In this document: piece by piece, positions 4,514-62,651 of the stretch
Numbering within the stretch: the first letter of the stretch is position 1
Layout: each line of letters opens with the position of its first letter
Assembly (NCBI GenBank): GCA_964016885.1
Contig: OZ024742.1
Location: 240,560,001 to 240,624,000, forward strand
DNA length: 64,000 nt
From: Eledone cirrhosa
Taxonomy: Eukaryota
Direction of reading: 5' to 3'
Translations under genes and position numbers: made by a program
Notes under the pieces: model-generated
Told to the model about the DNA's origin: nothing
Seen by the model: only the letters and a program-made list of their open reading frames with translations
Database searches by the model: none

Positions 4514-5421
4514 CGAGGGCAATCCCAAAAGTAAGGTCTCCAAAGCGATGGGGACGCAGAGAAACTGTTCGTACGGCTGTTGGCAACACTGTTGTGATTG
4601 GTGCTTCCTTCACTCCCAAACAAGCATGCGCGCACTTTGCTGGGATACTCAATGTTGGCTTGGCAGCCGTTGAGAATGGAGCTCCCGTTGAACACTACCG
4701 CCAAGTGCGAAGTTCGCGCAGTTATTCGGTTTTTGAACGCAAAAGGCGTTGAACCGATTGAAATTCATCACCAATTGACGGAAGTGTATGGACAGTCATG
4801 TATGGATGTCAAAAACGTTCGCAACTGGTGTAGAGAGTTTACAGCCGGTCGCACTGAAATTCACGACGAACAAAGGAGCGGGAGACCGTCATTTTCCGAC
4901 GAGACAGTCGCAAAGGTTGACGAAAACATGCGTAAAGATCGGCGGATCACTCTGGATGCTTCTCTGCATTTTGGTTCCTGGGGTTTCCTGAAGCACCATC
5001 CACAGGACTTTAACGGAAGAATTGCGACTGTCTCGTCGGAAATTGACGGTCTCCCGCTCCTTTGTTTGTCGTGAATTTCAGTACGACCGGCTGTAAACTC
5101 TCTACACCACTTGCGAACGTTTTTGACATCCATGCACGACTGTCCATACACTTCCGTCAATTGGCGATGAATTTCAATCGGTTCAATGCCTTTTGCGTTC
5201 AAAAACCGAATAACTGCACGAACTTCACACTTGGCGGTAGTGTTCAACGGGAGCTCCATTCTCAACGGCTGCCAAGCCAACATTGAGTATCCCAGCGAAG
5301 TGCGCGCATGCTTGTTTGGGAGTGAAGGAAGCACCAATCACAACAGTGTTGCCAACAGCTGTACGAACAGTTTCTCTGCGTCCCCATCGCTTTGGAGACC
5401 TTACTTTTGGGATTACCCTCG
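4514..5421. mobile_element. Mariner-derived fold-back element made of two head-out copies of the 5' end (TIR plus transposase HTH)
   Basis: TA|CGAGGG(c/t)AATCCCAAAAGTAAGG termini on both sides; ~400-bp inverted arms each encoding EVRAVIRFL..K..EIH.QL.EVYG...VR.WCREF..GR....D..RSGRP; no DD34D domain. Confidence 0.92.
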
Positions 5422-6559: not shown

Positions 6560-8035
6560 CACCAAATATGATAGTTAGTTGTGATAGAAGCAGGCAACTG
6601 CTGGACGAATAAGCAACCCCTGACAGTAAATTACTAGGGGAGATGGAGCAATGGGTGACACCTGTCACTCCCAAGAAGACTCACAATCCAGTGACATAGC
6701 TATGACGAGGCAAGTAAAGGCCACCCCTAAAAAAGCCTAATCTTTGTGGGTTTGACAAAGTACTAGATTGATGACTGGCGCAAATAAGACCCAAAACTGC
6801 AATTACAATATGGTGAGAGGAACAAAAAAGAACTTATACTGCATCGTCCTTTGCACGGGTTAACAAGGGACATGTTCAGGCCTTAGGTAGAGGAGCCTGT
6901 TTGAAAAATATATTGCAGTCTCCATTTCATGCCTCAAAAACTGGCGATGGGCCTGCGACCTGTCCTAGGAGGTGGGGATGGATGCACAAAGATTGCTGAT
7001 ATCCTGAGACTCCAAAAAGTGTTCGGAAGGGAGCAAACCTTGACAATTGGAATATCATAACCCTTACAGGTAAGGAGCAGGAGCTAGTGGAGGAGGCTAA
7101 ATGCTACCAGCTAGATATAGTTGGGGTTTCCTCAACAAAGTTCCATGGCTCAGATACTGTAGATTTGGATGGAGGATGAAAACTCCACTATTCAGGTGTG
7201 GCACCAGAAATAACTGCACAGGCGGGAGTGGGGATACTCACAAGCCTCTGGTTATCAGAATGTGTTATAGACTGAATCCAATTAGGAGGAAGGATTTTCC
7301 TCTTGTGGGTGATGCAAGTTTATGAATCAAACAAGGAGCCCGAATACAGGTCCTTTCTTGATGAAGTAACTGCAGCATTAGATGTAGTTAAGATTGAGTT
7401 ATATATCCTGATGGGAGACTTCAATGCACATGCTGGCACTGACCACCTGACATGGAATAAGTGATTGGAAGGAATGGCGATCCCAATCTAAATACAAATG
7501 GTGAGGCCTTACTAGACTTCTGTTCTAGCAATGGACTGTCTATTATGAACACCTTTCAGCACAGAGATATCCATAACTATACAAGGTATAAAGGGAATCA
7601 GGGACACAGATCAATAATTGATTTTGTTATTGTCTCTGATCTCTTTGATTTTGTGCTGGATGTTCATGTTAAGAGAGGTGCTGAGCTGTCAACTGACCAC
7701 CATCTATTTATCTGCACCTTGAGACTATCTAAAGCCAATGAAGCCCACAAAATTGACAGGTCCAGGGCAACCTACAGAATAATGTGGGAATCATCGGTGG
7801 ATAAGGAAGTCAGGATCAGGTATGTAGATACTATTGCATCTATATTCAGAGAACTCTCTGAGTAAACTGAAGATTTTGAGATAGAGTGGAGATTGTTCAG
7901 CTTCTGCTTCAGCTGTTCAGTTATGATGGCGAAAGGGGCTTTGTATGGCACTAGATGACAGGCGGACCCCTTGGTTCAATCAAGAGGTCAAAGATGCCAT
8001 TTGAGCCAAGAAGGAGGCCTACAAATCCTGACTAT
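6560..8035 (+). mobile_element. Rex3/Expander-like RTE LINE, 5' UTR plus AP-endonuclease region (decayed)
   Basis: Frameshifted ..WNIITLTGKEQELVEEAK.YQLDIVGVSSTK..DGGWKLHYSGV..GDFNAH..N.NG..LL.FC..N.L.I.NT.F..RSIIDF..GAELSTDHHL. Confidence 0.85.
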
Positions 8036-32335: not shown

Positions 32336-33369
32336 ATGCAAATGAACCTCTCCAGCAAATGTTTTATATTTGAAAGTATATAAGTTAAAAGCATCGGAAT
32401 GAAAGAATGGAGGTGGCAAACCAGATTTTATAATATAGCTATTCGATTCTGTCATTCTACTCTAATGGCTGCCAGGTCACATCTACGTGGTCACACAACT
32501 TACTAGAAATAACAGCCAAATCTCTCTTAAATGAGACTCCCTCTTTAGGTATAGGCAAAGATACCCTTGGTGAGAAAATATGTACCTCAATATACACTCT
32601 TGACAGGTGCAATGTGCCCGAACACGGAAGAGCCAAACTCTCACCGTCATCGCCCCCATCTCTCTGTAAGGTGAGCAAATGGGGTCCCACGTGCTGGCCA
32701 CCCCACAGCCACAGCGGACAGAATGGAGAAGGCGTTTCCCCGGAGGATGGTAAGGGAGATGAGCTGGAGCTTATTCTTGTCTCAGTAAGTAAACGTCACC
32801 GATGGTGGATTAAACATCACGAAACACTAGTGTTTGGCGTTGCCACTCGGTTTCTGAGACAACTGTGACATGGTCACAGCTTCAAATATTCTTAGCGAAA
32901 CTCTTGTATGTTTATTATACATAAACATATCGTATATGACTTCATATACACCTCCAATATGAATCACGCCATGTTAGTGCTACTGATATTTAATCAGGGA
33001 ATAGTTTACGTGGAAAGTCGGTATCAAAATTGATGAAAGTAATATAAACTGCAATGATTATTTTAAGGAAATTTTATAACTACACAAAACTCTGTGTTTG
33101 GTATTCTTCGAGTCTGAGAAGCATTAGTATATAGATTTCGATTGACAATATCCCAGATTTTGTGGACCTCGTTAAATCGGACCAAGGAAACAATGTTTCC
33201 ATTGGTCCTTCCATTGCTAATACTGTTTAGCGGTCGCAATTCATGGAAGAGAAATATTGATAATGGATATTTTAAACATTTGAGTCTTTTTAGCCACTAT
33301 TTACCATGTAAGCATATGAAGTATTTGACTCTGTAACATAATATATTATACTTCATCTAATCTAATTAT

Positions 33370-33560
33370 ATAATTGTTTCTACCTTTGACACAAGGCCAG
33401 CAATTACCCAGTTCATTACTGGTACTTTATTTTATCGACCCCGTAAGGATGAAAGGCAAAGTTAACCTCGGCGGGATTTGAACTCAGACCGTAAAGGGAC
33501 GTAACTATGCTGGAAAGCATGGCGTCCGACTCTCTACCGTTACTGCCAACCCACCGCCCC
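33370..33560 (-). mobile_element. tRNA-derived SINE family 1 (further copies 15020-15210, 20283-20430, 37343-37446, 41141-41357, 42519-42620)
   Basis: Full reverse-complement match to the 31921 copy; the 37343 copy has TSD cttcagaaataat. Confidence 0.9.
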
Positions 33561-34395: not shown

Positions 34396-34830
34396 CTCCG
34401 TATGGTCTGGATTTGGCTAGAACTTTCCATTGAATGGAGAAATTCACGTCTGCATCCTTGAGTGACCATGCCTGGCTTGTCAGTTTTGTGGACGATCGGT
34501 TATCAGGTCGTTTGATGGTTAAGGAAGTGTTCTTTAAACCGGCCCGCCGTCATATCCACACTTGTTTTGACCTCCCGCTGTTGGTACCGTGCCGGTTCAA
34601 AGAACGCTTCCTTAAACATCAGACGACCGTTAGACATACTGATAAGCGATCGTCCACGAAGCTGATAAGCAACGTATGGTCACTCAAGGATGCAGATGTG
34701 AATTTCTCCATTCAATGAAAAGTTTTAGTCAAATCCAGGCCATACGGAAATGGAGCAGTGTCTTGTAAGGTGTGTATTGATGAAAGAGTGAATATCTTGC
34801 AGAGTTACGTAACATCACTTGCCTTTCCAA
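34396..34830. mobile_element. Penelope-like (Naiad-type) GIY-YIG 3' fragment, head-to-head diverged pair
   Basis: + arm: RFKERFLKHQTT..STKLISNVWSLKDADVNFSIQ*KVLVKSRPYGNGAVSCKVCIDER; - arm (34396-34560): MTAGRFKEHFLNHQ..WSLKDADVNFSIQWKVLAKSRPYG. Confidence 0.8.
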
Positions 34831-35079: not shown

Positions 35080-35198
35080 ATACGTATGCATACATACATA
35101 CGTACGTACATATACATACATATATATATATATATAATATGGAAAACGAAGAATCAGTGAGGCATCAAACCCAAGCCACAGATTCAAATAAACATATA

Positions 35199-35340
35199 TA
35201 CAATTTATTACGTATTACAATTGTTTCTCCGGCGAACAGGTCGAGGTGCGATCTGTTTGTGGATCGAACCTGATTCTGGATTCGCAGATACGTCTCCGAG
35301 TTGTTCGCCGGAGAAACAATTGTAATACGTAATAAATTGT
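35199..35340. repeat. Short fold-back containing a hammerhead relic
   Basis: ~40-bp perfect inverted arms; minus strand cgtat CUG-CGA a tcc...gga GAAA CAAUUG UA/ atacg, one core base missing. Confidence 0.6.
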
Positions 35341-35668
35341 GTTCCGATGCATCACTGATTATTCGTTTTCCATATTATTATACCCTGCTCCGAAGCAGCA
35401 TAGAGTGCTCAACCGGCATACCGCCTATGGACGCATCCAAGCAACCTTACTACAAATATATATATATATAAATCTGGGACTTGACTCTTTCTTCCTCACT
35501 TTTCGTTGCTTTACCATCTTTGTTTGTTTACAGTGTCGCTCGTTCCCCTTATTTACGTGTCCCAACGACTTTCTTTAGCCGTTGCTCGCACCAACCAGAG
35601 GTATATGGTCTTTAAAGCGATGAAATACCAACGATGGTTGGAAGATCACTGATGAAGGACTAACTTTA

Positions 35669-35732
<64 letters not shown>

Positions 35733-36021
35733 TATGTACATCGTTCCTGTGTCAGTGTTGAACAAAAAGGTGACGTGGTTGCCTAAACACTGTACGGCGT
35801 AATTCGGGCTGTTTGTTTGTTTACAAACAAACAAACCGAGCATTATAATAAATGTTCGGTAAACCGATACGTGCATATATATATGTGTGCATGTATGTAT
35901 ATATATATATACATACTACTGTACGCCTGTATACATGTATGTATGTACGTATACATACATACTTACATTTAAGTAAGTGCCGTACTAAGAGTGAGAATGA
36001 AATTTCGTTTCATTCTATTCC

Positions 36022-36059
<38 letters not shown>

Positions 36060-36163
36060 TTCGTATTTCCAAAGAAATACGGTTTTAGGAAGCCGTAGCT
36101 ACGCAAAGACAGGGGGGGGGGGCTAACGCCCTCTGGTGATGTCCAGCAGAAGCAACGGGGTCA

Positions 36164-36207
36164 ACCGTCTATGCATTTCAGGCTTAACTGGCCTTCATCA
36201 GGACGGT
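36164..36207 (-). ncRNA. Minimal type-I hammerhead ribozyme
   Basis: Minus strand: accgtc CUGAUGA aggc-cagttaa-gcct GAAA UGCA UA/ gacggt; perfect 6-bp stem I, 4-bp stem II, palindromic stem III (AUGCAU). Confidence 0.88.
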
Positions 36208-36453
36208 CCCTCCCACCGCTTGCAACTGCTTAAATAGAAGACAGAATATATACTTTTCTCGTCTGTGTAAATCATGGTGATTAATCTCATTTGCATATGA
36301 AGCTGCATAAGTTGGCTCAACTTATAATAAAAAAGAAATAGGATTTCGCTTCAAGCATAGCTTTATACAATATGTATAAATATGTCGTATTTCCAAAGAA
36401 ATGCGGTTTTAGGAAGCCGTCTTCTAGTCCAGCAGTCGCAAGCGGTGGGAGGG

Positions 36454-36497
36454 ACCGTCCTGACGAAGGCCAGTTAAGCCTGAAATGCATAGACGGT
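36454..36497 (+). ncRNA. Minimal type-I hammerhead ribozyme (predicted cleavage after 36491)
   Basis: accgtc CUGACGA aggc-cagttaa-gcct GAAA UGCA UA/ gacggt; all core nucleotides intact. Confidence 0.9.
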
Positions 36498-36776
36498 TGT
36501 CCCCTTTGCTTCTGCTGGACATCACCAGAGGGCGTTAGCCCCCCGGTGTTTGCATAGCTACGGCTTCCTAAAACAGCATTTCTTTGGAAATACGACATAT
36601 TTATACATATTGTATAAAGCTATGCTTGAAGCGAAATCCTATTTCTTTTTTATTATAAGTTGAGCCAACTTATGCAGCTTCATATGCAAATGAGATTAAT
36701 TACCTCATTTACACAGACGAGAGAAGTATATATTCTCGCCTGTCTTCTAGTCCAGCAGTCGCAAGCGGTGGGAGGG

Positions 36777-36820
36777 ACCGTCCTGACGAAGGCCAGTTAA
36801 ACCTGAAATGCATAGACGGT
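36777..36820 (+). ncRNA. Minimal type-I hammerhead ribozyme (predicted cleavage after 36814)
   Basis: Same motif with one substitution at the top of stem II (acct); core intact. Confidence 0.85.
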
Positions 36821-36973
36821 TGTCCCCCTTGCTTCTGCTGGACATCACCAGAGGGCGTTAGCCCCCCCCCCCGGTGTTTGCATAGCTACGGCTTCCTAAA
36901 ACCGTATTTCTTTGGAAATACGAAATATTTATACATATTGTATAAAGCTATGCTAGAAGCGAAATCGTATTTC

Positions 36974-37018
<45 letters not shown>

Positions 37019-38184: not shown

Positions 38185-38605
38185 TTAATTAGGATTATAA
38201 TATTTGAAAGTTTTTCTAATTCTATAATTGCATGATATAATTAATTCTTGTCGCTTATTTAATAGGATATCCTTAGATTTCATTATTTCAAAGAGTTCCT
38301 GGGAACATAGTCTACATTCATATCTATTATTTTGATAAGGGGGTGAGCACACTCCAGGTCAGGTTATAATCGATATTCTTTTTTCTATAATTATTAATTA
38401 TTTCAGCTAAGGATGTTGTATTAGCTAATGCGGCATTTTTAAAACTGTGTTTGTGGGTATTAAATCTTACTTTAAATTGGTTAGAAGTAGCTCCTATATA
38501 TGAATAAGTTGAGTCCTTAGTGCTAATTTTACATTTATATACTATGTTATTAATAAGGCAATTTCCTTTTAATGGGCAATTTGCTTTGTTTCTACAGTTA
38601 CAACC
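38185..38605 (-). mobile_element. Penelope-like (Naiad-type) GIY-YIG endonuclease fragment, absent from the ORF track
   Basis: Minus: GCNCRNKANCPLKGNCLINNIVYKCKISTKDSTYSYIGATSNQFKVRFNTHKHSF...LTWSVL..ECRLCSQELFEI..LLNKRQELIISC; AT-rich 3' tail to ~37460; (CAA/CAG)-rich linker 38605-38830. Confidence 0.88.
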
Positions 38606-44594: not shown

Positions 44595-46664
<2,070 letters not shown>

Positions 46665-47837
46665 AAATACAGCAAAATTCTGAACTCTAAAACTATTAGA
46701 CTATCATACTCCACGGTACCAAACCTTGAAGCATACATAAAAAACTTAACTTAAGGCAATTAAACAACTCTACAAAACAAAACATTTTAGTAACAGATGG
46801 GCAGAACGTAATATCTGTCTCCCAACCACTAAATGGGAGACGGGTATTACACAATCTACCTGTACCGCTATCACAACCTATCCATGGTATACCCGCTACC
46901 CACAACAAAGAATGTAACTGCCATCTACCTGAAAGATGTCCATTGAAGAATGAATGCCTAAAGTCCAACATTGTTTACCAATGCACGGTTGAATCGAACG
47001 ACCAGAAATGGTATTATATCGGATCTACCACCACCTCGTTTAAATCTCGCTGGTACCGTCATCGATTCTCAATCAAACATCCTAATCACCGTTTTGTGAC
47101 CACGCTCGCCAACAAGACCCGGCAACTCCGTGAACGCAACCAACAGTTCACCTTAAAATGGGATATACTTTCCAGCGCAAGTGCATATCGGAGTGGATTG
47201 AAGTACTGCAGGTTATGTAACCTTGAACTTTTTTACATATTAAAATCCCAAAACAAACTACTTAACGATAGAATTGAACGATCATTATACTGCAATCACA
47301 AACTAAAATCTAAATTCTCTCACTATAAAATAACTTAACATTCGAACCCGTAACTATAACATCGCTTTCTAGCTAACCACCTTCTCTTTCCCCACACTAC
47401 AAGACAATACACTGCTTATCACTATAAATGGTAACTCAGTGCAATTCACAGATTACTACTACAAACCCAAAGTTCACTCACCGCATAAACTTCGTCTGTC
47501 CCCTCTCTACCTCTCTCTCTACATCCATTACACTCTCTCTCTCTCGCCTTTGGCCTACCTCCCTCTCCACATCTATGAACCTGCCCTCTGGGGCAATAAA
47601 TAATTCCGACCTTAACTATCAACGCATCTTCCCCAACAACCCCACTTAAGGGTATTTACATTGTACATTTTACCATTCTGTTCTGAGGATACAGTGGTCA
47701 CAGCATTGGATATTTGAGTTCTGCAAATACTTGTAAATTTGCACATAGCATAACTAGGCTGTAGTACCACCGTGGAAACATTTGTAAGCACACGGAATAA
47801 ATTACCTTTTTATGATGTCTACCTGTTATTATTCATT

Positions 47838-47845
<8 letters not shown>
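46665..47845 (+). mobile_element. Inverted partial copy (pLTR) of the same Penelope-like element
   Basis: Near-identical reverse complement of ~44850-46185; GIY-YIG ORF 46943-47338 differs by one residue; ends in (TA)n. Confidence 0.92.
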
Positions 47846-52985: not shown

Positions 52986-53040
52986 ACTGCCTGAAGAGGT
53001 CACAGCCAATGATGGCTGTCACCGAAATATATATAGCAGT
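52986..53040 (+). ncRNA. Type-I hammerhead ribozyme (right arm of palindrome)
   Basis: actgc CUGAAGA ggtcacagcca-atga-tggctgtcacc GAAA UAUAUA UA/ gcagt; 5-bp stem I, 10 of 11 pairs in stem II, palindromic short stem III. Confidence 0.85.
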
Positions 53041-54173: not shown

Positions 54174-57100
54174 TAGCAGTTTAGCCCGGCGTTGCTCGGG
54201 TTAGTTCATTTGCTATGAAAACTTACATACAGGTAAACGTGGCTTGAAAGCGAATAAGCTTATCAATTAAGTGCATAAAGCAGTTGAACCAGTTATTAAA
54301 AGTTACGAACCAATTAGCATTTTGGACAATCAATGATGGGTTAATAATCTTCCAATAACGAATTTAGTAGACCAAAGTTGCAAGATGGTGGCCCTGATGC
54401 CGCTGGGTGTCAGATCTATCCGCCATGGGTGACCCTACCAGGAAATAGTTTTCCAGATGGCATAGCTCCAACACCACCAACACCTGCAACAACATCTATA
54501 GCACCTCTTTGTAGACGATATTGCGTGTTATCCCTTGAGGAGTGTAAGCAAAAAGTCCATTCCTGCTCCCTACGCGGAAACAGGCAACATAAAGTTGGCC
54601 ATGGGAGAAGCATGGCTCCCGCAAATGGATGCCCGCCACCGACAATGTTTGCCCTTGTGACTTGTTAATGGACATGGCAAAACATGGTCTCACCGGGAAT
54701 TGGGATTGCCGGAAATCGAACTGGATATCTGACGCCGAGGGGAAAAGGTTTATCCTTGGAATGAAAACATTCTCCCTTCTCCCGCACCCCGTTACAAGGG
54801 TGGCCTCAATCAAGTGGGGCGTCAGTGACTTGACGACCATGCGAGTACCGTTGCACTGCTTTGGTGAACGCAAGTTCCTTATTAGCATAATGGGACAGCC
54901 AACCCTAAGCTTAAGAATGTGAGGTGGGAGCCCTGGGGGCTCAAGGGAATTTAATAACTCAACCGGATAATTAACGATATCGTCGGGGTCTGACGTCCGG
55001 TCGATATATTTGAAGATGTGCTCATTACTGGGAATCTTCTCAATCAGCTGCTCGTTAATAAAATTAACCATGGTATTTTTCGGAGCAAGGATGGCTCTTT
55101 CGCTGAGCCAATCAAGGTTTTTAAAGTTAGATGAGACATTAGGAAAAACTGCTTCCCAAAGGTCAGAAGGGCTGCTCACAATATTGCACAGGGAGTCGAT
55201 TGCTATGCCACCCTTTTCATCCGCAGGGACCTTGCCCTCACCAAGTGCTAAAATGTTCTGAGAAAATGCTGCAGACATGTTGTCACCATGCAAATGAGCA
55301 CGCATATTTGTGCTCAGGTACAAACTCTTCACCTGGAGCCACAAACTCTTCACCTGGAGCAGGCACGCACTTCATCAGCTCTTGTCCCTTTGGGGATGAC
55401 AGGCAGCGTTTGCCGAAAATCCCCTGATAGCAGAAGGGTTACGCGGTTACGCCACCCATAGAAGCCGTAGAATCCCTAATATCTTTCAGGGTCCTGTCCA
55501 ATGCCTCAAGGGCACCCCTGTGTGCCATTGTGCACTCATCCCAAACAATGAGGCAACATTTTTTGAGAACCAGAGCTTCGTGTGAACTCTTGCTGATATT
55601 GCATGTTGGTGTCTCAGTTTTTACTAAATCCAAGGAGAGTTTAAAGGTTGAATGTGCTGTCCTGCCTCCCGGCAGCAAAGTAGCAGCGATCCCGGACGAT
55701 GCAACGGCCAACGCAATTTTTTTCTCCTGACGAATCTTAGCGAGAATCAATTTCGTTACAAAAGTTTTTCCGGTACCCCCAGGAGCATCGAGAAAGTAAA
55801 TACCCCCAGTCTGATTTTGAACCGCATCAATGATAATTAAATAGGCCAACCTTTGGTCCCACAGAAGTTTGGGTTCATTTTCCTCTAAGTATTGGGAAAG
55901 AGATTCGATGTCATATTCTGTTTCCCGCAACAAATCCGGGGCCAACGTGTTAGCTTCCTCTCTAACGGTCGATGGCAAGCCATACGTCGCCAATTCGCTC
56001 CCACCCATGTCGAGGAGGGCGTCCTCGATATCAATGAGTGCCCTGTTGTAGATAATGTCGCTGTAACCAACTTCCACTGAAGGATACTGCAGATGAGCCA
56101 GGCGCAGGAAGTCCTCAGACAGGAAGTCTCTGTACTTGACCCATAAAGATTTGGGATCACCCAATTCACACTTTTGAAGCGAAATGGCAAAGAGTTCCCG
56201 TAGACTTTTAGGTGATTTCAACAAAGCACCTTCTGCTAAAGTGGAATCCCATTGCGAATCATCTTCCAAAAGACCACGCTTAAAGCAGACTTCCCGGTAC
56301 GTATCACATATTTCTCCATCAACAGTTTTGAGGTCCTGAAAACTTTGTGGGCCTACAACTTCATGCAGAAGAAGGCGGAGATTAAAGCACTCATGCTGAG
56401 TTGGCGTCACAGTGTAAACCCTTCCAAGACAGCTGTCAAATTTTATACCGGGATGTCTTTCAACAGTATGACCTGACTTTCTTCGTACCCAAGTGTTTTT
56501 CGACCATATAAAGTAGGATGGAACCTGGGGGGTACACAATTGTTTGCGCAAATGTATCGAACTGGCAAAGTTTGAAGAAACCCGTCAGAGTGGTCTCTTT
56601 CGGATCGGCGGCCAGCTTGGCGGCGGTTTGGTCCATAAAGTAAACCCTTTGCCCATTTTCCAAATGTACCGCAAGCTGTACGATGGCGGGGTGCCGTTGG
56701 TGTAGGGCTAAACCAAATAGGCGCCAAAAAGCTTCATTGCTACTGATGTACCGCCCCGCCAGGTATTCTGTGACCTCATCCCTGCTATTTTCAGCTTGAA
56801 ATGCGGACATTGCGGCACCAGAGCTCTTATTTACATATTTGCATATGTATTTTATCGACTTGACAGAGTTGCAAAACTCAACGTTGATGTGGGCGTTGAA
56901 TATCTTCAAGAGAAGCGGGCAGTAAGAGACCACCCATCTATTGTCAACTTGACCTCCCTTTACTGTTGTGGTGAAGTCACTGTTTTCGGGCCGTCTCCGC
57001 CTGTACAGGGGTACCTGTCGCCACCTGTCTGAGTATCATCAACAAACTTTTTTGAGTATCCCTTACTGTACGACCCCCCCTTTCAGACACGTGTGATTCT

Positions 57101-57433
57101 CATTAGGACCCAACGCACACGGACCATGTTAGCTTTGACGATGTCATGTAATTCCTGGTCAGTTGCTGGGTTAGGGATTTCAGCCAAAATGAAGCTGTCT
57201 ATGGCATTTGAATTGATTTTATCAGCTAACCAAATCAAAATGTGAGCATGTGGCAGCCCTCGTTTTTGCCATTCGACGGTGAACATGTCACATTTTACAG
57301 CCCCAAATACCTGACCCTTTTTGATTAAAGCCATGAGTTTAGCCAGTTTCAGTCTGAACACTCTGACAATGAGGTCATGTCTGTTCGAATAATTTTGCCC
57401 AGGAAAAAGTTCACGGGTTACATTCCGATTCAT
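54173..57433 (-). mobile_element. Helitron RepHel pseudogene (5'-truncated, frameshifted) with intact 3' terminus
   Basis: Rep HUH motif VEWQKRGLPHAH; HINVE.C.SVKSIKYICKYVNK; Pif1 motifs FLDAPGGTGKT, ASSGIAA, GGRTAHS, WDEC, NGTR, FAMSINKSQGQ, HGQLYVA; hairpin cccgagc-aac-gccggg plus CTAG|T at 54173. Confidence 0.95.
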
Positions 57434-58585
57434 ATGTCTATCTATATATTAATTTCAACAATGTCAGTATTCCGTGTGTCATAATTCTCGATTATCATTG
57501 GTTCATAGGTTTCAAACGACTCCGCCCACCTCAACGACGCCAAACTTAAATTAATATGCATAATGCCAATGAGGGTGTGATTCACTTATTTTTTCCCTTT
57601 TTATTTTGTATCTAGTCCTTATCCTTAGGACTCATGTAGTTTTGACTTATATATTTATAGTATATATCTATTAAATAATCCTTTTACAATAATTGATCTG
57701 AAACATTAATTTTTAACAATATTTTCAGTAACTTATTTACTATATTGTATTATGTTATGTATATTTGAAAGGTATCATCTTAAGTCTTTAGATAATATAA
57801 TCTTTGTGTATTTTTTTTGATAAACACATATATGTAATTTAAAATTTAGACCTCTTTAAGTTTGATTATAAGGCCTGTTGATCCTTTAGGCACTCAAATT
57901 GTTAATCATAAATTCTTTAAAAATTATAACTGTAATTATTTTCTAAATTATATTATATAAACTGTTGTCAATATTATAAATAATTTTGGTAAAGTTTACC
58001 TTCGTGAGGTTGTAAAAACATTATGTTTTCTTTCTCGTGTTTGTAAATCCTTTAAATTTGATTTCATAAAATTTGATTTTAGAAATTAAATTTGATAGTT
58101 TACTTTAATATTAATACAGATACCTATTAACTTTTAAAACCTAAAATATTATTCATTACTCTGAACTAACTTAAATTAAATATTTTGAATATTAACGGTC
58201 AACCAGATATGTTTAGATATATATTGTATATATGGATAATTGTCTAAAGACTTGAACATAAGTTATTCCTTTTTATCTCTCTCTCTGTAATCAACTCTCT
58301 TTTATTTTTCTAGGCCCCTACTAACTATATTATCCCATCAGCTGTTTCTTCCTCTATGCTTTCTTTTCTTTCCTCTTTCTTCAGTAATTTAAATTATTTA
58401 ACAGTTATATTGATGCCAAGTATTTTTAAGCTGTCTCACACGAACCCTCTCTATTGTATGTATTATATATTTTTCTCATGTTTCTCAATATTAAGGTATA
58501 TAAATATTGAGCTTTGTCATATATTACTCACTACCATGACTGAATCTTAATCATCTACTATGTCAGGGTATGTCATGTATCATCT

Positions 58586-61761: not shown

Positions 61762-62651
61762 TTGACTCCTGTAATATTAACTCAAGCCTCAACATTTCTG
61801 CTCAATGAACAATACGTCAGCCCTTCCATCAGTGCACAAAAATTGACGGTCCAATTCATTGAGTATTGGCTTGACAACCATCCACATGACACCCCTTTCT
61901 TCACCCTAACAGAGACCCATTTCGACAACTCCCACTTGGAGGCTGAAGTGAAAGTGAGGAATTTTACAACCATCCGCGCGGATTATATCATCAGAAGGAA
62001 AGGTGGAACTGTCATTTTCCTGCATGATTCTTTTAAGACAGGCGGAAATAATATATTCTTCAATAGCTACTGTGAATCAGACACCGTACACAACAAAGCC
62101 AATGATTTGATAGTAGATGTGCTCTATAGATCACTTCAAACACCCATTCTGCACTTCAAAGAATACCTCAACATCATTAAATGTTATATTCAACAGAGTC
62201 ATTCTGGTAACATACTAATAATGGAAGACTTCAATCTACTCTGTGTTGATAGGTCTACAAACAGTTTGAAATCAGGTACTTCCACCACAACCGCTGACAA
62301 GGCAGAAGTAGAGTCACTTCTCGACTTTATGGATGCCATTTTTCTGTCCCAGCTTGTTATTGCACCAACAAGATATCAGAAAAACATTTCGGACCTAGTG
62401 TTTAGTAACCCCACTAACACTATACACAATATTACAGTGGAAAAAAAGCCCTCCTCCTCGTAGACGACGACATGGTTCTCTGAAACCTGAGATTCCTTCA
62501 GTCGAAAGTTAAACCCAATGACCTCTCTTAGCCGACCCATTTGATAACATGGATCTTTTTTATAATGCCAACTAATAACGATCTATCACATGTCGAATGA
62601 TCTTTCACACACACACACACGCGCGCACGCACACACACACACACACGCGCG

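Follow-up and report, generated by a model that had tools for sequence, protein, structure and literature searches.

A dispersed non-coding hammerhead unit of Eledone cirrhosa that carries the insertion footprint of Penelope-like elements

We identified a non-coding unit of 323 nt, dispersed in the genome of Eledone cirrhosa, that bears a predicted type I hammerhead ribozyme and is inserted in the manner of Penelope-like elements (PLEs). The copy studied lies in a window of 64 kb, the whole stretch of DNA that was analysed. We consider it fairly probable that this insertion is a dispersed non-LTR retrozyme, copied in trans into (TA)n by the reverse transcriptase (RT)/GIY-YIG protein of a PLE, most likely one of the Neptune type.

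A descriptor scan of the whole window found three type I hammerhead motifs in this insertion and a single further match, a weak one, at 52991. The scan confirmed the two forward-strand hammerheads of the preliminary description, with predicted cut sites 323 nt apart, and the third on an inverted arm (Table 1). Two points of that description need correction. In the second motif, a G>A change leaves three stem II pairs and a predicted pairing of 0.43 versus 0.96, and in the inverted copy the core reads CUGAUGA instead of CUGACGA and the outer part of stem I is damaged. As had been stated, the insertion has no evident coding capacity: the window copy holds no ATG-started ORF of at least 46 codons in 36419-36978, and two stop-to-stop frames across this interval gave no Pfam match. 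The (TA)n reported on both sides is present and masks a target-site duplication, if there is any. Upstream of the hammerhead are two motifs, which we take to be octamer-like and TATA-like, that could possibly form a putative internal promoter.

Table 1. Parts of the window insertion; unit positions are numbered from 36492.
Feature	Position	Strand	Description
(TA)n target, left	36025..36052	.	
Inverted arm	36046..36420	-	375 nt; unit position 69 round to about 119
Inverted arm terminus			short 3' site, leading into (TA)n
Hammerhead 3, inverted arm	36163..36208	-	core at 36201; predicted cut after 36170
Forward arm	36419..36977	+	about 1.7 units; unit position about 250 round to 157
Forward arm terminus			tail 3' site
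Extended stem I	36427..36520	+	outer 9-bp helix, 36427-36435 with 36512-36520
Hammerhead 1 (type I)	36453..36498	+	core at 36460; predicted cut after 36491
Hammerhead 1 stems			stem I 7 bp, stem II 4 bp, stem III 6-nt palindrome
One unit, cut site to cut site	36492..36814	+	323 nt, 43% GC; predicted monomer or circle
Octamer-like (36684-36691) and TATA-like (36727-36732) motifs	36684..36732	+	upstream of hammerhead
Hammerhead 2	36776..36821	+	core at 36783; predicted cut after 36814; stem II weakened by G>A
Tail, about 40 nt between the family's two fixed 3' ends	36939..36977	+	forward arm only
(TA)n target, right	36978..37015	.	

Comparison of 22 hand-chosen copies from three subfamilies showed that the predicted hammerhead fold is conserved and covaries. 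Three of the four stem II pairs and two of the seven stem I pairs change on both sides, which is the stem covariation that the preliminary description had proposed to look for; 90% of cells pair (21-45% in slid controls), and the covariation score was reached by none of 500 shuffles. The invariance of the core is in part a product of the sampling, because copies were picked with core-covering patterns; the stem I changes are unaffected by this. The Rfam covariance models, also proposed as a check, gave no hammerhead match even at E<=10. The motif with its long extended stem I folds with a z score of -3.8, and the monomer with one of -5.7, for which none of 100 shuffles was as good. In the predicted structures the circle is 63% paired and a transcript spanning both arms 88% paired, and the helices of the extended stem I would keep the 5' and 3' ends of the monomer together.

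The motifs in the window are not chance matches, because a 35-mer across the hammerhead has 453 exact matches in the 3.0-Gb genome and its reversed control has none. A 26-mer near the 3' end has 1167 exact matches, again with none for the reversed control. Both are minimum values and refer to arms instead of loci; they establish the dispersed family that the preliminary description had suggested searching for. The whole unit gave 2467 first-look candidates in the genome. Outside CpG, copies diverge from the majority by about 3%. Older subfamilies were traced via variants in four public sequencing runs made up of contigs of unrecorded kind (39 exact matches and 11 with one mismatch), and a pattern that leaves stem II free found further relatives (151 matches versus 4 for its control).

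Tandem copies of the unit range from dimers up to about ten units. The largest, a tandem array of about ten units (L232:2131-5435, contig C2), has internal higher-order duplications and a common private change, at unit position 291, beside the hammerhead core. We rejected this array as a master copy, since its private change is present in only 1 of 91 dispersed passes, which indicates that it is not the source of the dispersed copies. The octamer-like and TATA-like motifs are retained in most copies that reach them in the three main subfamilies, with an exact TATA-like match less frequent in one. Loose hammerhead patterns yielded more ORF-free relatives of the unit as well as unrelated families, and L332-L350 contain additional old hammerhead families that have the same stem III palindrome, for which we found no clear unit likeness and no ORF link.

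Copies of the unit bear the PLE insertion footprint, as shown by loci sampled along contig C1 in order of position, among the first 100 matches listed for the 35-mer and for the 26-mer. PLE insertions are described in PMC8557442 as carrying an inverted, 5'-truncated copy and a tail at one end. A head-to-head inversion is present in 91 of the 143 position-ordered loci. Arms with a regular 3' end (216 in all) are divided equally between a short site at about position 119 (108 arms) and a tail site at about 157-166 (108 arms); the two fixed ends lie about 40-47 nt apart, usually with one per arm. Accordingly, 61 of the 91 inversions pair a short with a tail end, and the others are short-short (3), tail-tail (2) or have an irregular end (25). 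For the anole PLE, such a structure with two 3' ends has been traced to two internal RT start sites (PMC11167929). In the first sample, a dinucleotide run lies within 12 nt of 97 of 124 regular ends, 57 of which go directly into (TA)n. The copies show 5' truncation, and their 5' ends have no clear pile-up at any position; the idea that transcription begins at a fixed place near unit position 263 was dropped for want of a clear pile-up there. Arms longer than one unit (80 of 216) always re-enter the unit, and 9 of the 216, the window copy among them, hold two hammerheads.

These data support the view, already taken in the preliminary description, that the unit is a non-autonomous, hammerhead-bearing element and not the pLTR of a coding element. 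If the copies were 5'-truncated pLTRs of an autonomous PLE, with nothing non-autonomous about them, the footprint would be the same, as it is that of any truncated PLE; however, the arms of more than 323 nt loop back into the unit, and thus the unit is not the end of a coding element. Moreover, none of 53 and 33 free 5' flanks, tested with Hydra- and Neptune-type proteins, runs in sense into a PLE endonuclease-UTR junction, and the three PLE matches in 5' flanks are antisense (L026, L140) or beyond (TA)n (L107). The same ORF-free unit recurs in the older subfamily and relative copies inspected. The pLTR reading, which had been named earlier as the alternative that would overturn the proposal, is therefore largely refuted, and we regard it as very improbable. 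No DNA likeness to the unit was found in the PLEs of the window or in 30 GIY-YIG loci, and none of the PLE families sampled is an autonomous partner sharing its 3' sequence.

The driver of these insertions had been sought in a neighbouring Naiad-type element. The neighbouring PLE (window 44709-47840, 44.7-47.8 kb) is a young, inverted insertion in (TA)n whose GIY-YIG domain is a C-terminal endonuclease, with a CxCx5C linker, CxxC and CxH, and with DKT in long copies. PMC8557442 gives a C-terminal endonuclease, DKT, CxCx5C, CxxC, CxH and a (TA)n target as marks of the Hydra clade. Because its C-terminal endonuclease carries Hydra-clade motifs, the neighbour is not a Naiad; judged from motifs and not from a tree, it is of the Hydra type. 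It lacks both Naiad marks, the N-terminal GIY-YIG domain and DKA, and the three GIY-YIG pieces found within the window match, in alignments, the C-terminal endonuclease of a Hydra-type ORF. Naiads do share the (TA)n target and the same inverted structures, and cephalopod remnants are listed (PMC8557442), but they are described as devoid of canonical hammerheads and as long inactive in cephalopods; mobilisation by a neighbouring Naiad is thus hardly tenable. Nor did we find any DNA common to the unit and the Hydra-type neighbour, or a canonical hammerhead in the neighbour's UTR by scan; the clade is described as having them.

A GIY-YIG search revealed several families with a Neptune-type linker, the name here denoting the linker motif and a C-terminal endonuclease, not a position in a tree. 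They end in (TA)n at two sites; judged by eye, the spacing is about 40-45 nt for two of the families and about 65 nt for another. We screened 271 locus records (about 242 places) of the unit for fusions with the 3' ends of four Neptune-type families and of the Hydra-type neighbour. In 15 records, a PLE 3' end lies within 40 nt of a unit arm, most of them being either nested insertions with (TA)n in between or low-complexity matches. Three loci are in-sense fusions: at L014 and L091 the unit is joined to the 3'-terminal 130-177 nt of one Neptune-type family, and at L300 to the 3'-terminal 124 nt of a second one. At each of these loci the Neptune part runs out into (TA)n but is not separated by (TA)n from the unit, and the upstream sequence of the element is missing; we read these fusions as template switches within one reverse transcription. 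On these three events in about 242 places, with the 3' ends of five families screened, the Neptune-type families are the best driver candidates. At a further locus, L326, an arm of the Neptune type and an arm of the unit together make up an inversion. Such co-insertion is not driver-specific, because the unit also lies head-to-head with a different Hydra-type element (L026) and with a third PLE type (L140).

Alternatively, the driver may be a Hydra-clade element, either this neighbour or one related to it, or PLEs of several clades may act promiscuously. Hydra-type elements are abundant (59,443 first-look endonuclease candidates), target (TA)n (PMC8557442) and include young copies; L026 joins the unit head-to-head to a Hydra-type arm, and L140 to an arm of a third type. 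However, the two 3' ends of the neighbour's family are 145 nt apart, leaving a 145-nt tail, its 3' end stands beside the unit at none of the approximately 242 places, and all in-sense fusions found are of the Neptune type. Moreover, the Hydra hammerheads listed in the PMC8557442 supplement have a stem III of 3-4 bp, whereas the 6-nt palindrome of the unit resembles that of the Neptune-type family in L274. We therefore hold a Hydra-clade or promiscuous driver to be unlikely. The L274 family has an intact hammerhead with this 6-nt palindromic stem III, and three other Neptune-type families (L245-L273) have, by eye, an apparently eroded core before the palindrome.

As to the template, of the 99 arms extending as far as the cut site, 96 continue beyond it, and the stop rate there equals that of the neighbouring bins, which indicates that the RNA copied was a circle or an uncut multimer, not a cut linear monomer. 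Mismatch at polymorphic sites is 7.0% between turns within an arm, 5.8% between opposite arms and 21.3% between loci (all three rates are diluted alike by 8 invariant sites in the list), and this sharing of haplotypes between turns fits either a circle or a uniform multimer. Among 79 inversions, variants occur in all turns at 27 sites (23 triplet and 4 quartet), in in-register turns only at 10 (8 triplet sites elsewhere and 2 in the window copy), in a single arm only at 9 and crossed at 2. The window copy has its two variants in the same turn of both arms and lacks them in the last turn. In-register variants of this kind suggest that some insertions, the window copy too, were copied from a dimer whose units differed, or else underwent later conversion between arms. 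The truncation rate rises threefold past about one unit; a model with truncation at a fixed coordinate (log-likelihood -975.7) fits slightly better than one with a fixed length (-978.5), but the two are not separable. Reads joining 36814 to 36492, which had been proposed as a sign of the circle, would not discriminate, since this junction is present in genomic dimers too.

We give even chances to the circle as the main template and somewhat lower ones to uncut multimers. The circle is modestly favoured because religation would most simply reconcile a conserved ribozyme with free read-through of the cut site. The same element could be driven by a PLE with no circle at all, the template being long uncut read-through or multimeric RNA and the hammerhead being slow, protein-dependent or engaged in end trimming. 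The turn-specific variants common to both arms in the window copy and at the 8 in-register sites elsewhere are consistent with such a template, as are the existence of the ten-unit array and of several arms of 2.3-2.7 units. In addition, uncut RNA is the main substrate of the anole PLE (PMC11167929), and motifs with a minimal stem III are reported to cleave poorly as monomers (PMC4209133). Against this stand the near absence of the array's private change from the dispersed passes, the scarcity of two-hammerhead arms, such that linear copying would shrink the family in the absence of long donors, and the lack of a clear 5'-end pile-up. Most shared variants, moreover, are present in all turns, and the hammerhead stems remain paired through several subfamilies. 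For these reasons we think it improbable that the element spreads with no circle involved. In the Xenopus study (bioRxiv 10.64898/2026.07.22.740005), in vitro cleavage is reported for only 1 of 9 retrozyme dimers.

We propose that copying in trans by a PLE protein could proceed as follows. A copy with two hammerheads, as in the window, would be transcribed. The hammerheads, probably as a dimer formed via the palindromic stem III, would excise the unit by the predicted cleavage, and the ends of the excised unit, kept together, would ligate to form a circle. The PLE protein would then cut both strands of (TA)n, and would prime reverse transcription at a pair of internal sites in the RNA, separated by 40-47 nt and each serving one DNA end. 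Each cDNA would extend for up to about two units, and the joining of the 5' ends would produce the inversion, with the tail on one arm. In its most specific form, in which a ribozyme-made circle of 323 nt is reverse-transcribed repeatedly by a Neptune-type protein from two internal starts and the fusions represent jumps from that protein's own RNA to the circle, the model is tentative. If it is true, it would provide the first named driver and template of an animal retrozyme, and a ribozyme lineage would have stayed intact through several subfamilies while the helpers' own hammerheads eroded.

The class of animal non-LTR retrozymes has been described (PMC7229834; bioRxiv 10.64898/2026.07.22.740005). 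Cervera and de la Pena (2020; PMC7229834) report repeats of 350-390 bp in mussel and of 330/350 bp in axolotl. Like those retrozymes, the unit is non-coding, falls within 150-450 bp, has one type I hammerhead per unit and a GC content below 50%, occurs as dimers to multimers and has a self-paired predicted circle; its short stem III is also found in the amphibian motifs that work as dimers. Target-site duplications, where such retrozymes have them, exceed 4 bp; in the unit, the (TA)n flanks would mask one. In contrast, its copies are mostly dispersed insertions of one to two units; about two thirds carry an inversion, and their 3' ends are fixed and lie in (TA)n. The passages of PMC7229834 on which this comparison draws mention no inversions or tails, and as to the driver they go no further than to propose PLEs, a 'strong candidate' for mobilisation. 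Cleavage and circles were shown there, whereas both are predicted from sequence here. Li, Clavereau and Pollet (bioRxiv 10.64898/2026.07.22.740005), who treat vertebrates, insects and a coral, come to the same conclusion on origin and mobilisation and likewise describe dispersed monomers and rare multimers. They argue from co-occurrence and from pLTR similarity in Xenopus; we rely on the footprint and the 3'-end fusions and found no pLTR similarity.

The unit also resembles insertions of endonuclease-bearing PLEs (PMC8557442, PMC11167929) in its 5' truncation, partial tandem structure, inverted 5' copy, one-end tail, microsatellite target and hammerhead upstream of the 3' ends. Its two 3' ends are 40-47 nt apart, compared with about 30-40 nt for PLEs. 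Unlike those elements, it has no ORF, and its repeat measures 323 nt versus about 3 kb. Chlamys MRC1 offers a precedent for non-coding PLE derivatives with pLTRs and head-to-tail copies; however, the Chlamys elements, as far as PMC8557442 characterises them, generally match the 3' end of an autonomous partner and mostly lack hammerheads, which is the reverse of the unit. Taken on its sequence, the unit has the testable features of a non-LTR retrozyme, with a predicted ribozyme, and of a non-autonomous PLE, except for likeness to a partner's 3' end. The literature searched, which included few subscription papers, held no description of the unit family or of such footprints for a retrozyme, and the portions of PMC13282606 considered do not mention hammerheads. 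The unit family is therefore new in a known class, and the genomic evidence for its mobilisation is unusually clear. On the route by which animal retrozymes return to the genome, the family provides countable genomic evidence in the form of inversions, paired 3' ends, cut-site read-through and fusions. It also puts forward candidate helper families together with a pair of RT start sites, so that a direct in vitro test becomes possible, as for the anole PLE.

The window also contains other repeats and element fragments. Hydra-type endonuclease fragments of other families lie at 38197-38602 (minus strand) and 34400-34805, the second being a decayed inverted pair. A (TA)n-bounded repeat at 35735-36025 adjoins the element and also flanks unit copies at L042, L093 and L107, and a short inverted structure flanked by (TA)n at 35135-35360 is possibly another small PLE-type insertion. 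At 32860-32960 there is a hairpin-plus-motif 3' end as in older subfamilies of the unit, with similar ends in the repeats of L082, L246 and L250. Pfam matches further identified Helitron helicase/Rep remnants, a mariner-type HTH inverted pair and two LINE endonuclease fragments (54499-57448, minus strand; 4598-5337; 7461-7862; 61762-62460). At 33370, 37336, 38832, 39045, 39249 and 42502 there is a dispersed repeat that recurs often, measures about 140-200 nt and resembles a SINE in its size and spread.
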